Below are positions 641-37,143 of a stretch of DNA of 64,000 bases, one piece after another (within the stretch, counting starts at the first letter, position 1; the number at the start of each line of letters is the position of its first letter). Made by a program: the position numbers and the translations under genes. The notes beneath the pieces were generated by a model that was given only the letters and a program-made list of their open reading frames with translations, was not told the DNA's origin and made no database searches. This DNA is from Escherichia phage JK1. The stretch lies in sequence record MZ436830.1; one strand, given 5' to 3'.

Positions 641-1014
641 CGTGATTCCTTAACAAATTTCATAATTTCATCAAATTCATGCGCAGCAAGTTTAAGCTGA
701 TGTTCCTTTTTAATCTTTTTACACTGAGCTTTCCAATCACGTACACGTTTACGATAGTGTCTTCCTTGATACCAGTATCCTATCCAATTTATAGGTACTA
801 ATAAAAGCGGAACTACCAATGGAAGAATTAGTGTTGCTCCAAATATTGCACCAGATTCAATATCAGTCATAACGTCTATAACTATTCCAGCAATCAGCAG
901 AATCACAAATGATACGGCTACCACAGGACCTATTAATACATCAGTAGGAATTAGCTGACGTTTTAGTTCATACTTCACAGGTTCACTTGGAAGGTATAGT
1001 GATGGCTTTGACAT
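622..1014 (-). CDS. hypothetical membrane protein (two predicted TM helices)
   Basis: ORF track 622..1035; start chosen at internal Met (MSKPSLYLP...) to reduce overlap with upstream gene; hydrophobic segments VVAVSFVILLIAGIVIDV and ATLILPLVVPLLLVPI. Confidence 0.45.
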   Translation of the reverse strand: MSKPSLYLPSEPVKYELKRQLIPTDVLIGPVVAVSFVILLIAGIVIDVMTDIESGAIFGATLILPLVVPLLLVPINWIGYWYQGRHYRKRVRDWKAQCKKIKKEHQLKLAAHEFDEIMKFVKESRCKSQN

Positions 1015-1588
1015 ATTCTCTACATTCCTTAACAAATTTTTCTAATAATAAATCGCTTTCAAAATTAGGATTTTCTACGAATTTATCAAAAAGATCATCA
1101 ACAATAGTTAAGATATTCTTTTTACTAAGAATACGTTTATTTTCATGCTTCGTTTCAGAATCAACTATAAGAGTAAAGAAATATTTCTTGCCCTGAAATT
1201 TTACAGTAGTATCAATATAGAATAAATTTGACTTTTGTAAATTACGTTTAAACCATGCATCACTTAAACTATAAACGCCAAGATAATCATAATCGTCGTT
1301 TAAATAACAGACCGTCCATTCAGGAGAAACAAAATCAGTAAATTCAACGTCAAAATCGCATGTTAATAAATGAATTGATTCAATACTGTTAATAAGTATT
1401 CCAGGACGTATTAAAGACTTTTTACCTTTATAAAATCCAGAAAGACTTTCATCAGTTTCATATGAAGAACCCCAATAATAATTACGTCCTTCTGCCATAC
1501 GTTTAAGAGCATTTAATAATTGGTCTGGAACATCAACCTGTCTTTGGAACTCTTCAAACATTGAATTGAAATCACTTTGCATTTTCAT
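983..1588 (-). CDS. hypothetical protein
   Basis: ORF track 201 aa, same strand and tight spacing as neighbours; no recognisable motif. Confidence 0.5.
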   Translation of the reverse strand: MKMQSDFNSMFEEFQRQVDVPDQLLNALKRMAEGRNYYWGSSYETDESLSGFYKGKKSLIRPGILINSIESIHLLTCDFDVEFTDFVSPEWTVCYLNDDYDYLGVYSLSDAWFKRNLQKSNLFYIDTTVKFQGKKYFFTLIVDSETKHENKRILSKKNILTIVDDLFDKFVENPNFESDLLLEKFVKECREYVKAITIPSK

Positions 1589-1629: not shown

Positions 1630-2223
1630 TTATTTCAGAGAATTAATGTATTCCTGAACATCGGCAGAGGTAGTTTCAACCCCAGAAATATTGCCATTAA
1701 AGGTTTCAACTCGAGCAAGAGTATCTTCAATATCAACCTTAGTCAGTGCTGCAATTTCAACTACATCATCAGCAGTACTAATTCCGAGGGCATTCGCGGC
1801 GCGAGTTTCACGGATATATTCCAATTTAACTGCAAGTTCTTGGCGAGCATCATCTAACTCAACTACTTTCTTGGCGATTTCAATTCGCATTTCAGCATAA
1901 CCATCAGCTTTAGTAGTCAACTGCTCAGCTGTTCGACGATATAGTAAACCAAGTTTAGCATGCATTGTTACATCTTGACCTTCAGAAAGAAGCTTGCGAA
2001 TTTCACGCTCTTTTGATTCGGCCTGTCGATTCTTTTCGACAATAAGTTCACGAATACGTTTTTCTTCATTAATAGATTTAACAGAAGCAGTTTTTAGATC
2101 TTTAATCTTATCAAGTAGTTTTGCTGCCGCAGCAGTATACTGTTCTTCAACAGATAAATTTTTAGCCATAGCAGAACCAAGTTTAGTGCGAATAAACTCA
2201 ACAATTTTCTTCAGCATGTTCAT
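1630..2223 (-). CDS. hypothetical coiled-coil protein (weak PspA/IM30-like resemblance)
   Basis: ORF track 197 aa, charged/Ala-rich helical heptad character throughout ([27 protein letters not shown]...); canonical early promoter upstream at 2269..2298. Confidence 0.5.
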
Positions 2224-2687: not shown

Positions 2688-2963
2688 TTATTTCATATTA
2701 TTGAAATATTCTTCTGCGATTTCATCGTTATCATGGTAAACTTTAGAAGACAGTTTAACATAACCTTCTGCTGTGAACATATTAATCACAACCTTTACAG
2801 TATACCACTGACCATCTTCATTACCCATTACTGCGTAAGTTTCAAACATCGGATGGTCAGGACCGATAACTTTAATATCATTCACTGTACGACCAAAATC
2901 TTCTGAAACACATTTCATAAAGAAGTTGAACAGTTCGCCGTAATTATCCATTTCATTCTCCAA
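2688..2963 (-). CDS. hypothetical protein
   Basis: ORF track 91 aa; early-promoter-like element upstream at 2995..3024. Confidence 0.5.
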   Translation of the reverse strand: MENEMDNYGELFNFFMKCVSEDFGRTVNDIKVIGPDHPMFETYAVMGNEDGQWYTVKVVINMFTAEGYVKLSSKVYHDNDEIAEEYFNNMK

Positions 2964-2994: not shown

Positions 2995-3024
2995 ATAGTA
3001 CCATGGAAGGGTAAGGATGTAAAC
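2995..3024 (-). promoter_or_regulatory. T4-type early promoter (GTTTAC-N18-TACTAT) for the 2688..2963 gene
   Basis: GTTTAC at 3024..3019 on minus, TACTAT at 3000..2995. Confidence 0.5.
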
Positions 3025-3135: not shown

Positions 3136-3186
3136 AGGCCCGGAAAGGCCTAGATACCAAAAAGCCCCAACCTTTTGGTCGGGGCT
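3136..3186 (-). terminator. tandem hairpins plus U-run after the 3194..3655 gene
   Basis: AGGCC-CGGAAA-GGCCT (3136..3151) then AGCCCCAACC-TTTT-GGTCGGGGCT (3163..3186); minus-strand RNA has the hairpin followed by UUUUU. Confidence 0.55.
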
Positions 3187-3193
3187 AAGAATG

Positions 3194-3655
3194 TTATTTG
3201 ATTTGTTTAGCAGACCAAATGCGATCTTTAATAATTTTTTGGATGTCTTCAACATACTCTAGGTCATGAGCATGTGGATTATCTTTGAAACTATGAGCTC
3301 GCGCAAGTTTCTGGCCTTCGGTCTTAATTATCAAAAGTTCTTTAAGAATTGCTTCATACCTAGAGATAATTCCTTTAGCAATATTTTTTTCTTGTGCTGC
3401 TTTAGGGTCAGCCTTAGGAGCAGGTTTACCAGAAGGTTTTTCGAAAGCCGCACCAGTAGCAACCAGGCTTTTCCAGGCGGTGGTAACATAGTTACCCACA
3501 AAGCCTTCAGCTCTCATATCGTCATAGAACTTGTACCGAGATTCGTCAGAAGCATCTTTATAAGAATATTTACCAGCTTTAATAGCAGCAGTTGCTACAG
3601 CGCGAACATCTGAAGCGGATGCTTCGGTCATTAAAAATTGAGCATAAGTTTTCAT
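3194..3655 (-). CDS. capsid-targeted internal-protein-like protein with divergent CTS (MKTYAQFLMTE)
   Basis: ORF track 153 aa; N-terminus resembles T4 internal-protein capsid targeting sequence MKTYQEFIAE with an L-x-E gp21 cleavage motif; late promoter TATAAATA 30 nt upstream; Lys/Ala-rich body. Confidence 0.55.
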   Translation of the reverse strand: MKTYAQFLMTEASASDVRAVATAAIKAGKYSYKDASDESRYKFYDDMRAEGFVGNYVTTAWKSLVATGAAFEKPSGKPAPKADPKAAQEKNIAKGIISRYEAILKELLIIKTEGQKLARAHSFKDNPHAHDLEYVEDIQKIIKDRIWSAKQIK

Positions 3656-3683
3656 TATTATTTCCTGTGTTAATTAACTCATC

Positions 3684-3691
3684 TATTTATA
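3684..3691 (-). promoter_or_regulatory. T4 late promoter TATAAATA for the 3194..3655 gene
   Basis: Plus strand tatttata is the reverse complement of TATAAATA, about 29 nt upstream of the ATG at 3655. Confidence 0.6.
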
Positions 3692-3721
3692 CCAAAAAGC
3701 CCCAACCTTTCGGCTGGGGCT
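3692..3721 (-). terminator. rho-independent terminator at the end of the tRNA/stable-RNA transcription unit
   Basis: AGCCCCAACC-TTTC-GGCTGGGGCT hairpin; minus-strand RNA has the hairpin followed by UUUUU; near-identical copy at 3157..3186. Confidence 0.6.
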
Positions 3722-3772
3722 AAGCCTTGCGGCAACCTTGTCGGGGTTCCACCTGCTAAGGCAAGTGTTTGT

Positions 3773-4035: not shown

Positions 4036-4111
4036 TGGTCGAGGCAGTAGGGATCGAACCTACGACCCAGGACTTAGAAGGTCCTTGCTCTTCCTTCTGA
4101 GCTATGCCTCG
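4036..4111 (-). tRNA. tRNA-Arg (anticodon UCU)
   Basis: Cloverleaf folded by hand: acceptor CGAGGCA/TGCCTCG, T-arm GTAGG-GATCGAA-CCTAC, anticodon loop CTTCTAA, CCA encoded. Confidence 0.85.
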
Positions 4112-4115
4112 TATT

Positions 4116-4190
4116 TGGCGGACGTGATAGGATTCGAACCTATAACCAATCGCTTAACAGGCGATCGCTCTGCCATTGAGCTACACATCC
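4116..4190 (-). tRNA. tRNA-Asn (anticodon GUU)
   Basis: 5' GGATGTG-TA-GCTCAATGGCAGAGC D-arm, anticodon loop CTGTTAA, T-arm with TTCGAAT loop, CCA encoded. Confidence 0.8.
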
Positions 4191-4194
4191 AAAT

Positions 4195-4281
4195 TGGTGG
4201 GGAGTGGTGGAGTCGAACCACCCGAGTCGCAATGACAATGGATTTACAGTCCACACCGCTACCTCTACGGGATAACTCCCC
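4195..4281 (-). tRNA. tRNA-Tyr (anticodon GUA), type II with long variable arm
   Basis: 87 nt; acceptor GGGGAGT/ACTCCCC, anticodon loop CTGTAAA, variable-arm hairpin, T-arm GGTGG-TTCGACT-CCACC, CCA encoded. Confidence 0.7.
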
Positions 4282-4290
4282 AAATTAATT

Positions 4291-4365
4291 TGGTGGCCCT
4301 GGGTGGAATTGAACCACCATCTGGCGATTATGAGTCGCTTGCTTGAACCTTCCAGCTACAGGGCC
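4291..4365 (-). tRNA. tRNA-Ile (gene anticodon CAU; AUA-decoding type as in T4) or tRNA-Met
   Basis: Acceptor CAGGGCC/GGCCCTG, anticodon loop CTCATAA, T-arm GGTGG-TTCAATT-CCACC, CCA encoded; Ile assignment by analogy with T4. Confidence 0.7.
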
Positions 4366-4366
4366 T

Positions 4367-4442
4367 TGGTGCTGATTGACGGAATCGAACCGCCGACCTT
4401 CTCATTACAAGTGAGTTGCTCTACCTACTGAGCTAAATCAGC
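4367..4442 (-). tRNA. tRNA-Thr (anticodon UGU)
   Basis: Acceptor GCTGATT/AATCAGC, anticodon loop CTTGTAA, CCA encoded. Confidence 0.85.
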
Positions 4443-4447
4443 AAAAC

Positions 4448-4537
4448 TGGCGGAGGCGATAGGATTTGAACCTATGAGTCGCCGGAGCGACTGCCGGTTT
4501 TCAAGACCGGTGCATTAAACCACTCTGCCACGCCTCC
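4448..4537 (-). tRNA. tRNA-Ser (anticodon UGA), type II
   Basis: 90 nt; GGAGGCG-TG-GCAGAGTGGTTTAATGC D-arm, anticodon loop CTTGAAA, long variable arm, T-arm ATAGG-TTCAAAT-CCTAT, CCA encoded. Confidence 0.85.
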
Positions 4538-4539
4538 AG

Positions 4540-4613
4540 TCTCCATACAAGGATTTGAACCTTGGACCTCCTGATCCCAAATCAGGCGCTCTACCAAACT
4601 GAGCTACACGGAG
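4540..4613 (-). tRNA. tRNA-Pro (anticodon UGG)
   Basis: 5' CTCCGTG-TA-GCTCAGTTTGGTAGAGC, anticodon loop TTTGGGA, T-arm CAAGG-TTCAAAT-CCTTG; no encoded CCA. Confidence 0.85.
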
Positions 4614-4623
4614 TAAATTAAAT

Positions 4624-4697
<74 letters not shown>

Positions 4698-4702
4698 AAA
4701 TT

Positions 4703-4789
4703 TGGTGCGAGAAGTGGGACTCGAACCCACAAGGAAATCATTCCGCAGCATTTTAAGTGCTGTGCCTTTACCAATTTGACCATTCTCGC
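4703..4789 (-). tRNA. tRNA-Leu (anticodon UAA), type II
   Basis: 87 nt; acceptor GCGAGAA/TTCTCGC, anticodon loop CTTAAAA, T-arm GTGGG-TTCGAGT-CCCAC, CCA encoded; 1 nt from tRNA-Gln. Confidence 0.85.
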
Positions 4790-4790
4790 G

Positions 4791-4863
4791 CTGGGAATAA
4801 AGGACTCGAACCTTTGCATCCTGGAATCAAAATCCAGTGCCTTACCAACTTGGCTAATTCCCA
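4791..4863 (-). tRNA. tRNA-Gln (anticodon UUG)
   Basis: 5' TGGGAAT-TA-GCCAAGTTGGTAAGGC, anticodon loop TTTTGAT, T-arm AAAGG-TTCGAGT-CCTTT; no encoded CCA. Confidence 0.85.
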
Positions 4864-4949: not shown

Positions 4950-5465
4950 TTAAAGCAAATTAAACATTTTAACGGTCGGCAAAACAATTTCTTTTTCTAT
5001 ATAAGAGTATTTAACACTCTCAACTACACGCAAAAAATCATAATCATAATACTCAGAAGCACTGCCTAAAATATTAATAAGTCCTTCAAGCACTTTATTA
5101 CCATTCACAAAGAATAAGTCAAATACGCGTTCTTCGTCTTCTTCGGATTTATTACCAAGGTCAACTTCTATATCAAAGACCTTTTTAATGAATTCTGGAT
5201 AAAGTTGTTCTGAGAACAGTCCTTCAACCAAGTATTCATAAATAAAAAGCGATTGCTCGCTGAACAAGCCATTACCACAATAACGTTCAGCTTTAGTACT
5301 AGAATGTCTACTTTTAAACTTCTTTAAAAGATATTGAAATTGTAAGATTTCATGCTCTTCTACGCCAAACAGTGTTTTAGTTTTATAGTTGTCACCATCA
5401 TTTTCCCAGGTAGTGACATCAATTACGTAACCCTGCGGAATTGTAGTACCTAAACAAATATTCAT
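4950..5465 (-). CDS. hypothetical protein
   Basis: ORF track 171 aa; in the variable block between tRNA array and gene 57B. Confidence 0.5.
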   Translation of the reverse strand: MNICLGTTIPQGYVIDVTTWENDGDNYKTKTLFGVEEHEILQFQYLLKKFKSRHSSTKAERYCGNGLFSEQSLFIYEYLVEGLFSEQLYPEFIKKVFDIEVDLGNKSEEDEERVFDLFFVNGNKVLEGLINILGSASEYYDYDFLRVVESVKYSYIEKEIVLPTVKMFNLL

Positions 5466-6412: not shown

Positions 6413-6646
6413 TTATTTTTTACGAAAAATTGATTTATATTTATCAGCCCATTTCTCAATGACTTTTGCCGGGCCATAGATAACAAAGTAATCGCCAAAC
6501 TCTTCACCACCGAGTTGACCGAAATCATCTAATGCATCACGAAGAACTCCATGAGGCATTTCACCCATTTTATCTTTCTTGCCAGTGTAAATAAACTCAA
6601 CTTTTACATCAGCAGTTTCAGCAATAAATTCTTGATACGTTTTCAT
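6413..6646 (-). CDS. internal protein (IP) with canonical capsid targeting sequence MKTYQEFIAE
   Basis: ORF track 6413..6664; start set at second Met giving MKTYQEFIAE-TADVKV...; this decapeptide is the T4 IPI/II/III CTS cleaved by gp21; mature part differs from T4 IPI as recalled. Confidence 0.7.
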   Translation of the reverse strand: MKTYQEFIAETADVKVEFIYTGKKDKMGEMPHGVLRDALDDFGQLGGEEFGDYFVIYGPAKVIEKWADKYKSIFRKK

Positions 6647-35240: not shown

Positions 35241-35665
35241 TGCTTCTGATCCCTGAAACTCATGAATTAGTTCTCGAGAATGTCGAAGCACTTATTCCTG
35301 AAGCACAGGGTCGCTTTGACGAATTGTCTTCTGCTTTAAATAAAGACGATATAAATACAATTGTCGAGAATATGCTTGATGATGAAACTGATTTAGCGGT
35401 TGCATTAGCTTCTATTAATGAAAATATGCCGTTAAATGAATTTATCGTTAAACATGTTTCTGCCCGTGGTGAAATTACTCGCACTAAAGATCGCAAAACC
35501 CGCGAACGTAATGCATTTCAAACTACCGGGTTGTCTAAAGCAAAACGTAGACAAATTGCTCGTAAAGCTACCAAAACGAAGATTGCCAATCCAGCAGGTC
35601 AATCTCGTGCTCAGCGTAAGCGTAAAAAAGCTCTTAAACGCCGTAAAGCATTAGGATTAAGCTAA
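35240..35665 (+). CDS. 68: gp68 prohead core protein
   Basis: 141 aa, T4 length and order. Confidence 0.85.
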
Positions 35666-36303
35666 TGAATGAACCCCAATTACTAATTGAAACTTGGGGT
35701 CAACCTGGCGAAATTATTGATGGCGTACCAATGCTTGAATCTCATGATGGAAAAGACTTAGGTTTAAAACCTGGTTTATACATCGAAGGAATATTCATGC
35801 AAGCGGAAGTCGTCAATAGAAATAAACGTCTTTATCCAAAACGTATATTAGAAAAAGCGGTAAAAGACTATATTAATGAGCAAGTTTTAACTAAACAAGC
35901 TCTCGGAGAATTAAATCATCCTCCACGCGCTAATGTTGACCCGATGCAAGCCGCTATCATTATAGAAGATATGTGGTGGAAAGGAAATGACGTATACGGA
36001 CGAGCTCGTGTTATTGAAGGTGACCATGGTCCTGGAGATAAATTAGCAGCTAATATTCGTGCCGGATGGATTCCAGGAGTTTCTTCTCGTGGATTAGGTT
36101 CATTGACTGACACAAATAAAGGTTATCGTATCGTAAACGAAGGATTCAAATTAACTGTAGGTGTTGATGCAGTATGGGGTCCAAGTGCTCCAGATGCATG
36201 GGTAACTCCTAAGGAAATTACCGAATCACAGACGGCGGAAGCCGATACAAGTGCCGATGACGCCTATATGGCTCTCGCAGAGGCCATGAAAAAAGCGTTA
36301 TAA
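35665..36303 (+). CDS. 21: gp21 prohead core scaffold protein and protease
   Basis: 212 aa, T4 length and order. Confidence 0.9.
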   Translation: MNEPQLLIETWGQPGEIIDGVPMLESHDGKDLGLKPGLYIEGIFMQAEVVNRNKRLYPKRILEKAVKDYINEQVLTKQALGELNHPPRANVDPMQAAIIIEDMWWKGNDVYGRARVIEGDHGPGDKLAANIRAGWIPGVSSRGLGSLTDTNKGYRIVNEGFKLTVGVDAVWGPSAPDAWVTPKEITESQTAEADTSADDAYMALAEAMKKAL

Positions 36304-36333: not shown

Positions 36334-37143
36334 ATGCTTAAAGAACAACTGATTGCTGAAGCGCAGAAAATTGATGCTTCCGTTGCTCTTGATAGTATTT
36401 TCGAATCAGTTAATATTTCTCCGGAAGCAAAAGAAACTTTCGGCACTGTATTCGAAGCTACCGTCAAGCAGCACGCCGTTAAATTAGCTGAATCTCATAT
36501 CGCTAAAATTGCTGAAAAAGCAGAAGAAGAAGTAGAAAAAAATAAAGAAGAAGCAGAAGAAAAAGCTGAGAAGAAAATCGCTGAGCAAGCTTCTAAATTC
36601 CTTGACCATCTTGCAAAAGAATGGCTCACTGAAAATAAATTAGCAGTAGATAAAGGCATCAAAGCCGAACTGTTTGAATCCATGCTTGGTGGATTGAAAG
36701 AGCTCTTCGTTGAACACAACGTTGTTGTTCCAGAAGAATCAGTTGATGTTGTAGCTGAAATGGAAGAAGAACTGCAAGAACATAAAGAAGAATCAGCTCG
36801 TCTGTTCGAAGAACTCAATAAGCGTGACGCATATATCAATTATGTGCAGCGTGAAGTGGCATTGAGCGAAAGTACTAAAGATCTGACTGAGTCTCAAAAA
36901 GAAAAAGTCTCTGCTCTGGTCGAAGGTATGGATTATTCAGATGCATTCTCAAGTAAATTGAGTGCAATCGTAGAAATGGTGAAGAAATCTAATAAAGATG
37001 AAAGCACTATTACTGAGAGTATAAATACTCCTGATACTGAAGCAGCCGGACTGAATTTCGTCACTGAAGCTGTAGAAGATAAATCTGCACAAGGTGCAGA
37101 AGATATTGTAAGTGTATATGCGAAAGTCGCATCTCGTTTCTAA
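36334..37143 (+). CDS. 22: gp22 prohead core scaffold protein
   Basis: 269 aa, Glu/Lys-rich helical, T4 length and order. Confidence 0.9.
   Translation: MLKEQLIAEAQKIDASVALDSIFESVNISPEAKETFGTVFEATVKQHAVKLAESHIAKIAEKAEEEVEKNKEEAEEKAEKKIAEQASKFLDHLAKEWLTENKLAVDKGIKAELFESMLGGLKELFVEHNVVVPEESVDVVAEMEEELQEHKEESARLFEELNKRDAYINYVQREVALSESTKDLTESQKEKVSALVEGMDYSDAFSSKLSAIVEMVKKSNKDESTITESINTPDTEAAGLNFVTEAVEDKSAQGAEDIVSVYAKVASRF
37020..37027 (+). promoter_or_regulatory. late promoter TATAAATA (P23) inside the 3' end of gene 22
   Basis: Exact TATAAATA about 135 nt upstream of gp23 ATG. Confidence 0.55.

Follow-up and report, generated by a model that had tools for sequence, protein, structure and literature searches.

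A late gene between e.8 and rnaC of Escherichia phage JK1 probably encodes an unnamed T-even internal protein

Organization of the e.8-rnaC interval

The window, i.e. the whole 64,000-nucleotide stretch of phage JK1 DNA analysed here (MZ436830.1), derives from a Tequatrovirus near RB27, with which it shares 96.8% identity over the 1.5 kb surrounding a 153-aa open reading frame (ORF); the same 1.5 kb is matched by 736 phage records. The ORF lies at 3194..3655 on the minus strand and begins MKTYAQFLMTEASASD. The original prediction had described an ORF of this length starting with MKTYAQFLMTE, to which the strand, missing there, is added here. Read along the minus strand, the tRNA cluster (tRNA-Arg, 4036..4111) is followed by the rnaD/rnaC region, a terminator hairpin and the late promoter TATAAATA, and these in turn by an AGGA element, the ATG (3655), the 153-aa ORF, a second hairpin, and the early promoter and coding sequence of e.8. 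The individual features are as follows.

3689..3724, minus strand: upstream repeat copy, an intrinsic terminator (GCCCCAGCC-GAAA-GGTTGGGGC plus UUUUU) that ends the tRNA/rnaD/rnaC transcription unit
3691..3684, minus strand: T4-type late promoter TATAAATA, 28 nt before the ATG of the 153-aa ORF
3666..3663, minus strand: ribosome-binding site AGGA in ACAGGAAATAAnAATG, kept at 8 of 8 aligned Tequatrovirus loci
3623..3655, minus strand: predicted capsid-targeting propeptide MKTYAQFLMTE, codons 1-11, with a predicted gp21 cut after Glu11
3197..3622, minus strand: predicted mature protein, 142 aa (stop codon 3194-3196)
3154..3189, minus strand: downstream repeat copy, serving the cassette as intrinsic terminator; the conserved region ahead of e.8 comes next
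2995..3023, minus strand: sigma-70-type early promoter-like site for e.8 (TTTACA-17-TACTAT with TG), conserved in sequence with T4
2688..2951, minus strand: e.8 homologue, the next gene after the cassette

The two copies of the 36-nt direct repeat (3154-3189 and 3689-3724) are 92% identical and spaced 535 bp apart. The repeat core occurs twice in the 64 kb, both times flanking the 153-aa ORF, where none is expected from shuffled sequences. Both copies score as minus-strand intrinsic terminators, with folding energies of -21.9 and -19.7 kcal/mol (z of -3.1 and -4.3, respectively), in agreement with the earlier description of near-identical terminator motifs bracketing the gene. The upstream copy is the counterpart of the lone T4 terminator downstream of rnaC, and its final GGTAT merges into the late promoter, an element that had been predicted ~30 nt upstream of the ORF and is indeed present. 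TATAAATA stands right after the terminator T-tract in RB27, fPS-2, fD1, Bas37, Nami, PinkRuby, slur03 and Klebsiella phage Mineola, and the layout of terminator, late promoter and ribosome-binding site is conserved in eight Tequatroviruses and the Jiaodavirus Mineola (nine phages, two genera). The promoter sequence is consistent with late expression of the 153-aa ORF, i.e. during prohead assembly. At the other end, the early promoter-like site of e.8 forms the right-hand border of the variable site. An Rfam search of the locus returned tRNAs alone nearby and no match for the 153-aa ORF.

Several other differences between relatives are apparent in this region. The window carries ten tRNA genes at 4036..4863 on the minus strand (Arg, Asn, Tyr, Met, Thr, Ser, Pro, Gly, Leu and Gln) and no segB homing-endonuclease gene, whereas T4 has eight tRNAs and segB at this site. 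In the rnaC/rnaD region, between the cassette or terminator and tRNA-Arg, slur03, Bas37 and T2 have ~380 bp more than the window, which are annotated as a 351-bp ORF and may instead be additional small-RNA sequence. A 171-aa ORF (4950..5465, minus strand) separates tRNA-Gln from the trna.2 homologue; RB27 (RB27_137) and T2 have an equally sized gene here and T4 has none, a further presence/absence difference. Homologues of T4 e.6 and e.5 are found at 1630..2223 and 983..1588, respectively, both on the minus strand. Their Bas37 counterparts, bas37_0240 and bas37_0239, show strong depletion (log2FC -6.49 and -3.62) in a single clinical-isolate comparison, and the two homologues may form a host-specific counter-defence pair.

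A gene under purifying selection in a widespread family

The dN/dS ratio of the 153-aa ORF was calculated over eight phages (the window phage, RB27, fPS-2, fD1, Bas37, Nami, PinkRuby and slur03) and ranges from 0.05 to 0.24 with dS of up to 1.0, the window and RB27 alleles giving 0.05. The 153-aa ORF is a real gene under purifying selection on the minus-strand frame. A plus-strand ORF of 115 aa (3266..3613) was set aside because the codon-level conservation fits the minus-strand frame. As the alleles of the 153-aa ORF are far more diverged than those of the adjacent e.8 (dS ≤0.33), they fit an accessory gene with old alleles that are exchanged between otherwise similar genomes.

Searches with tblastn find the protein in 511 phage records, and among the matches listed the annotation is 'hypothetical protein', 'Phage protein' or none. 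It belongs to phrog_2280 (E 2.9e-52), a family of unknown function that about two thirds of the sequenced Tequatroviruses carry and that T2, T4 and T6 lack. Among 1.84 billion representative proteins searched exhaustively, no more than nine related clusters were recovered, every one from T4-type phages. No match was obtained in Pfam, NCBIfam, PADLOC or PDB sequence searches, comparison of folds likewise gave none, and neither homology nor fold provided a clue to any inhibitor; no phrog_2280 member is among the sequences in the supplements of Silas et al. A UniRef entry names the orthologue of Klebsiella phage KPKp 'Internal head protein'. The protein had been put forward as a candidate novel one, a description that does not hold for its sequence given the 511 records and this named orthologue; the family is widespread yet unnamed.

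The predicted mature protein (142 aa, 15.7 kDa) is basic, with a pI of 9.4 and 19 Lys residues. AlphaFold (mean pLDDT 76) models residues 1-10 as disordered and the remainder as helical, with a three-helix N-domain (14-67) connected through a Pro/Lys/Ala-rich linker (68-83) to a long antiparallel helical hairpin (84-150).

The leader and its predicted cleavage

The MKTY start and Phe7 of the 153-aa protein are identical to the leader of T4 IPII/IPIII, MKTYQEFIAE. Targeting by this capsid-targeting sequence (CTS) operates mainly via residues 4 and 7, and processing via residues 8 and 10 (Mullaney and Black, reviewed in PMC9026906); the reported targeting residues, Tyr4 and Phe7, are both retained. 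Across all six frames of the window, only two ORFs start with MK[TS][YF]..[FY], the other being the ipI-locus gene at 6413..6646. The CTS likeness noted in the original prediction is thus upheld, but the accompanying claim that the L-x-E motif is kept is not, as the cleavage region of the window allele reads L8-M9-T10-E11, with Met in place of Leu/Ile three residues ahead of the predicted cut. Substitutions at the equivalent position of the CTS influence processing (PMC9026906), which counts against cleavage of this allele.

A true L-N-E, L-T-E, L-A-E, L-V-E, L-S-E or I-N-E is found in 11 of the 13 aligned family members, and the aligned member P0004 has M-T-E as in the window allele. Leaders in the family are 9-16 residues long and differ in sequence, and the cleavage motif (L/I)-x-E precedes A/G/Q directly ahead of the conserved domain. 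Examples (slash, predicted cut) are MKSYAQFLNEVVLNE/A, MKSYAEFLTE/Q, MLKFDEVLAE/A, MITFNDILVE/G, MLNFNELLSE/G, MLEYSEFLKELFCE/A, MLNFNEFLAESQEINE/A and MLKFNEFLAE/G. Variable leaders that end in this motif at the domain edge are as predicted from selection for a removable targeting peptide. MKTYAQFLMTE itself is a minority form in phrog_2280, common to the 153-aa members of RB27, G8, JK1, a48 and ESCO10.

The components expected to act on such a leader are encoded in the window.

35665..36303, plus strand: gp21 prohead protease (Pfam Peptidase_S77, E 1.5e-111), the enzyme expected to remove the leader
36334..37143, plus strand: gp22 scaffolding core protein (Pfam T4_CASP, E 5.2e-90); internal proteins are targeted to the prohead core

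Known substrate sites of gp21 in the window include gp23 (SFLTE/AEIGG) and gp24 (ELLRE/S), and the end of the window leader corresponds to the gp23-like FLTE/A context with one inserted Met. On balance, we slightly favour cleavage of the M-T-E allele by gp21 after Glu11. The mature form would then have the N-terminus ASASDVR, whereas the uncleaved form would keep TYAQFLMTEASASDVR.

The window and RB27 have a common 5'UTR-plus-leader module (3623..3691, minus strand) that differs from the module of the remaining six phages (MKSY.QFLNE.VLNE). In its mature part, the window protein is most similar to that of Nami, although Nami bears the other leader type, a pattern suggestive of intragenic recombination where leader and mature part meet.

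Gain and loss of the cassette among relatives

In T4, the e.8-rnaC interval is a gene-free gap of 284 bp with one terminator. Alignment places a terminator, late promoter, ORF and second terminator of the window and RB27 at the position of this single T4 terminator. T6 and T2 lack the gene and carry a single terminator copy as indicated by a pattern search, and PST, which was searched for the gene only, also lacks it. The terminator pattern is found twice in seven of the eight gene-bearing loci, with the diverged second copy of RB27 visible in alignments only. Downstream of the first cassette, Bas37 (KarlGJung), Nami and PinkRuby have a second one that encodes a protein of 187 aa (MKTYAEFLTE/AAKLP) and is equipped with its own terminator. 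This second protein also belongs to phrog_2280 and is found in 165 phage records; in Bas37 it is located as follows.

Bas37 (MZ501089), locus extract L006, 629..1192, minus strand: bas37_0243, 187 aa, phrog_2280, beside the orthologue of the 153-aa protein

Terminator copy number tracks gene number, and an additional, related terminator tail is present in the phages with two cassettes. Leader-bearing cassettes at the site thus number 0, 1 or 2, with terminator repeats between them. HIDEN-SEQ, in which 1 of 48 TA sites of bas37_0243 was hit, places this gene in the essential class, an unexpected result for an accessory head protein that many relatives, including the window phage, do without.

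Klebsiella phage Mineola, a Jiaodavirus, shows the order tRNAs, terminator, TATAAATA, an ORF starting MKFKEFLAE/ASSDV, and e-region genes, and the product of this ORF shares the N-domain with the 153-aa protein at 61% identity. Because of this syntenic orthologue at the same site, a recent insertion by the tRNA operon was downgraded, and the loss of an old gene in some lineages, including T4, appears the likelier history. Of the earlier picture of a cassette dropped beside the tRNA operon terminator, the cassette behaviour is retained, as seen in the 0, 1 or 2 copies, and the dropping-in is probably incorrect. For cassette change, whether loss or gain, the obvious route is recombination of one terminator repeat with another; the cassette is bounded by the 36-nt repeats, and such exchange would account for the presence of none, one or two. 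The site presents, in a clean natural series, how terminator repeats let gene cassettes come and go.

Virion association and possible function

The orthologue of Yersinia phage fD1, g140, is 157 aa in length and 80% identical to the 153-aa protein. It is listed as virion-associated at a strict LC-MS/MS threshold, and the adjacent e.8 homologue is absent from the list (PMC8309999, Table S3). The specificity of this listing is low because the same virion preparation also yielded 113-137 of the 277 phage proteins (~40-49%), including DenV and lysozyme, together with 672 host proteins (PMC8309999). The paper on fPS-2/65/90 contains no proteomics. Taken with the leader and the late promoter, these indirect lines of support make packaging of the 153-aa protein into the head quite likely, and by analogy it would be injected with the DNA.

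For the locus as a whole, we favour the reading that the 153-aa ORF is a functional late gene whose product is an unnamed T-even internal protein, encoded at a third internal-protein cassette site. The 153-aa ORF would be transcribed from its own TATAAATA promoter right behind the terminator of the tRNA/rnaC unit, and the MKTYAQF... leader would bind the gp22 scaffolding core such that the protein is incorporated in proheads. The gp21 protease would then probably cut after Glu11, leaving a Lys-rich, all-helical protein of 15.7 kDa that would be retained with the packaged DNA and enter the next host together with it. Ip1, Ip2 and Ip3 are inhibitors of GmrSD-type type IV restriction enzymes, each with a different target (PMC12373910), and the leader-bearing Bas37_0260 inhibits McrBC (10.1101/2025.11.20.689424). 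As all four characterised leader-bearing proteins act in this manner, the likeliest task of the released protein would be to block a type IV restriction enzyme, i.e. a host nuclease directed against glucosyl-hydroxymethylcytosine DNA. A specific anti-restriction role is put forward tentatively, by analogy with these four proteins.

The main rival to such a role is that the protein is packaged but serves a general purpose, e.g. neutralisation of DNA charge or help in packaging or ejection, with no specific host defence target. The basic character of the mature protein and its Pro/Lys/Ala linker are in keeping with this, as lysines of T4 internal proteins touch DNA phosphates in the head (PMC3012670), and the low dN/dS is unlike the signature of a fast arms race. 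HIDEN-SEQ marks the Bas37 orthologue, bas37_0244, as dispensable on K-12, with insertions in 29 of its 34 TA sites, and its insertion counts are unchanged in the two clinical-isolate comparisons considered here (log2FC -0.11 and -0.30, adjusted p 1.0), so that these data reveal no host-specific phenotype. However, T2, T4, T6 and PST package their DNA normally without the gene, all four characterised proteins of the class are specific restriction inhibitors, and the divergence of the alleles relative to e.8 fits an accessory, exchanged gene; we consider a purely general role unlikely. Less probable still is a late protein that remains unpackaged in the cytoplasm and owes its leader likeness incidentally to recombination of its gene with 5' ends from other ip genes. 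The distinct 5'UTR-plus-leader module of the window and RB27 implies that 5' ends are exchanged, and the fD1 proteomics is of low specificity; yet leader ends of the (L/I)-x-E type before A/G/Q persist down to ~35% identity and in other genera, which would be difficult to account for if targeting and cleavage were not selected for, and the fD1 orthologue passed the strict mass-spectrometric threshold that its neighbour e.8 failed. A processing-defective or decaying window allele, packaged uncleaved and hence inactive or altered, could be invoked from L-M-T-E in place of L-x-E, from the minority status of this leader and from T4 IPIII with Asp at position 10, in which processing is blocked and targeting intact (PMC9026906), but is improbable given the intact ORF, the retention of the leader in RB27, G8, JK1, a48 and ESCO10, the low dN/dS against RB27, the chemical nearness of Met to Leu and the resemblance of the FL-TE/A context to FLTE/A of gp23.

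Within the favoured reading of a packaged internal protein, a more speculative extension is that the e.8-rnaC gap may be a third, hitherto undescribed internal-protein cassette array of T-even phages, holding 0-2 phrog_2280 paralogues whose products would be injected effectors against a host system other than GmrSD and McrBC. Such a target would fit the behaviour of bas37_0243 as an essential gene on restriction-less K-12, and the absence of the gene from T2, T4 and T6 alike would explain how the family escaped classical study; we regard the proposal as doubtful at present. Since the four known leader-bearing T-even head proteins each inhibit a different modification-dependent enzyme, an uncharacterised leader-bearing family is a concrete lead for a new inhibitor-target pair, and its natural absence from T2, T4 and T6 offers a simple test of function.

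Comparison with known internal proteins and cassette systems

Orthology to T4 IPII or IPIII, a possibility raised in the original prediction, was looked for and not found, the similarity being confined to the leader or absent. Homology to IPII appeared plausible in a multiple alignment and failed in pairwise and profile tests beyond the leader (BLASTP E 0.013, driven by the leader; hhalign probability 30%). IPIII (BLASTP E 1.0) and Ip4 were rejected as orthologues, as both are unrelated on direct comparison. IPI and the Ip6-type ORF of the window, compared by multiple alignment only, are 22% and 30% identical, respectively, and fall in other PHROGs. By these sequence comparisons, the 153-aa protein is not an orthologue of IPI, IPII, IPIII or Ip4, with IPI judged from the multiple alignment and PHROG assignment only. 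The names from Ip4 onward reportedly go back to Repoila et al. in 1994. The remaining named Ips were judged via records that use Ip names (RB27, T6, PST and T2); RB27 is the only one of these with the gene, which is left unnamed there although the record uses Ip names.

The 153-aa protein resembles IPII/IPIII in its N-terminal capsid-targeting leader (MKTYAQFLMTE versus MKTYQEFIAE), in being small, basic, non-essential and accessory, in its location in a variable region near the e/tRNA segment, and in the presence of gp21 and gp22 in the same phage. Unlike IPII/IPIII, it has one residue more in the cleavage region, belongs to another PHROG family, shows no similarity past the leader and has no known target; its gene lies between e.8 and rnaC, whereas those of IPII/IPIII lie between denV and e. 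With the ipI locus (T4 IPI, Bas37_0260) it shares a leader-bearing product and a hypervariable site at which cassettes replace one another between close relatives. IPI and Bas37_0260 are proven type IV inhibitors (of GmrSD and McrBC, respectively), and they have another locus and mature sequences unrelated to that of the 153-aa protein, which is also ~2-fold larger than the ipI-locus protein and, unlike it, all-helical. In the window, the ipI locus (6413..6646, minus strand) contains a 77-aa ORF, MKTYQEFIAE/TADVKVEF..., that is an orthologue of Bas37_0260 (~80% identical by eye); it is assigned to phrog_8111, 'internal virion protein', and a gene of equal size is annotated Ip6/IpVI in T6 and PST.

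The closest relatives are bas37_0243 and the Jiaodavirus orthologues (Mineola gp134 and KPKp), which have the same PHROG, tRNA-terminator site, late promoter and leader type. Nevertheless, bas37_0243 has no pairwise similarity to the 153-aa protein beyond the leader, and the C-terminal halves of the Jiaodavirus orthologues are strongly diverged; P0021 bridges both types. For the cassette itself, the closest described mechanism is that of PeSL cassettes (Arbiol 2010; Comeau 2014), in which stem-loop repeats flank sites of gene gain and loss in hyperplastic regions of T4-type phages and are proposed to mediate gene shuffling via recombination (PMC4122927). In both cases conserved regulatory repeats flank a variable segment, and at the e.8-rnaC site the number of repeats tracks the cassettes. 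However, a PeSL combines an early promoter with a stem-loop, whereas the repeat described here is a strong intrinsic terminator, with a late promoter, not itself part of the repeat, joined to its upstream copy.
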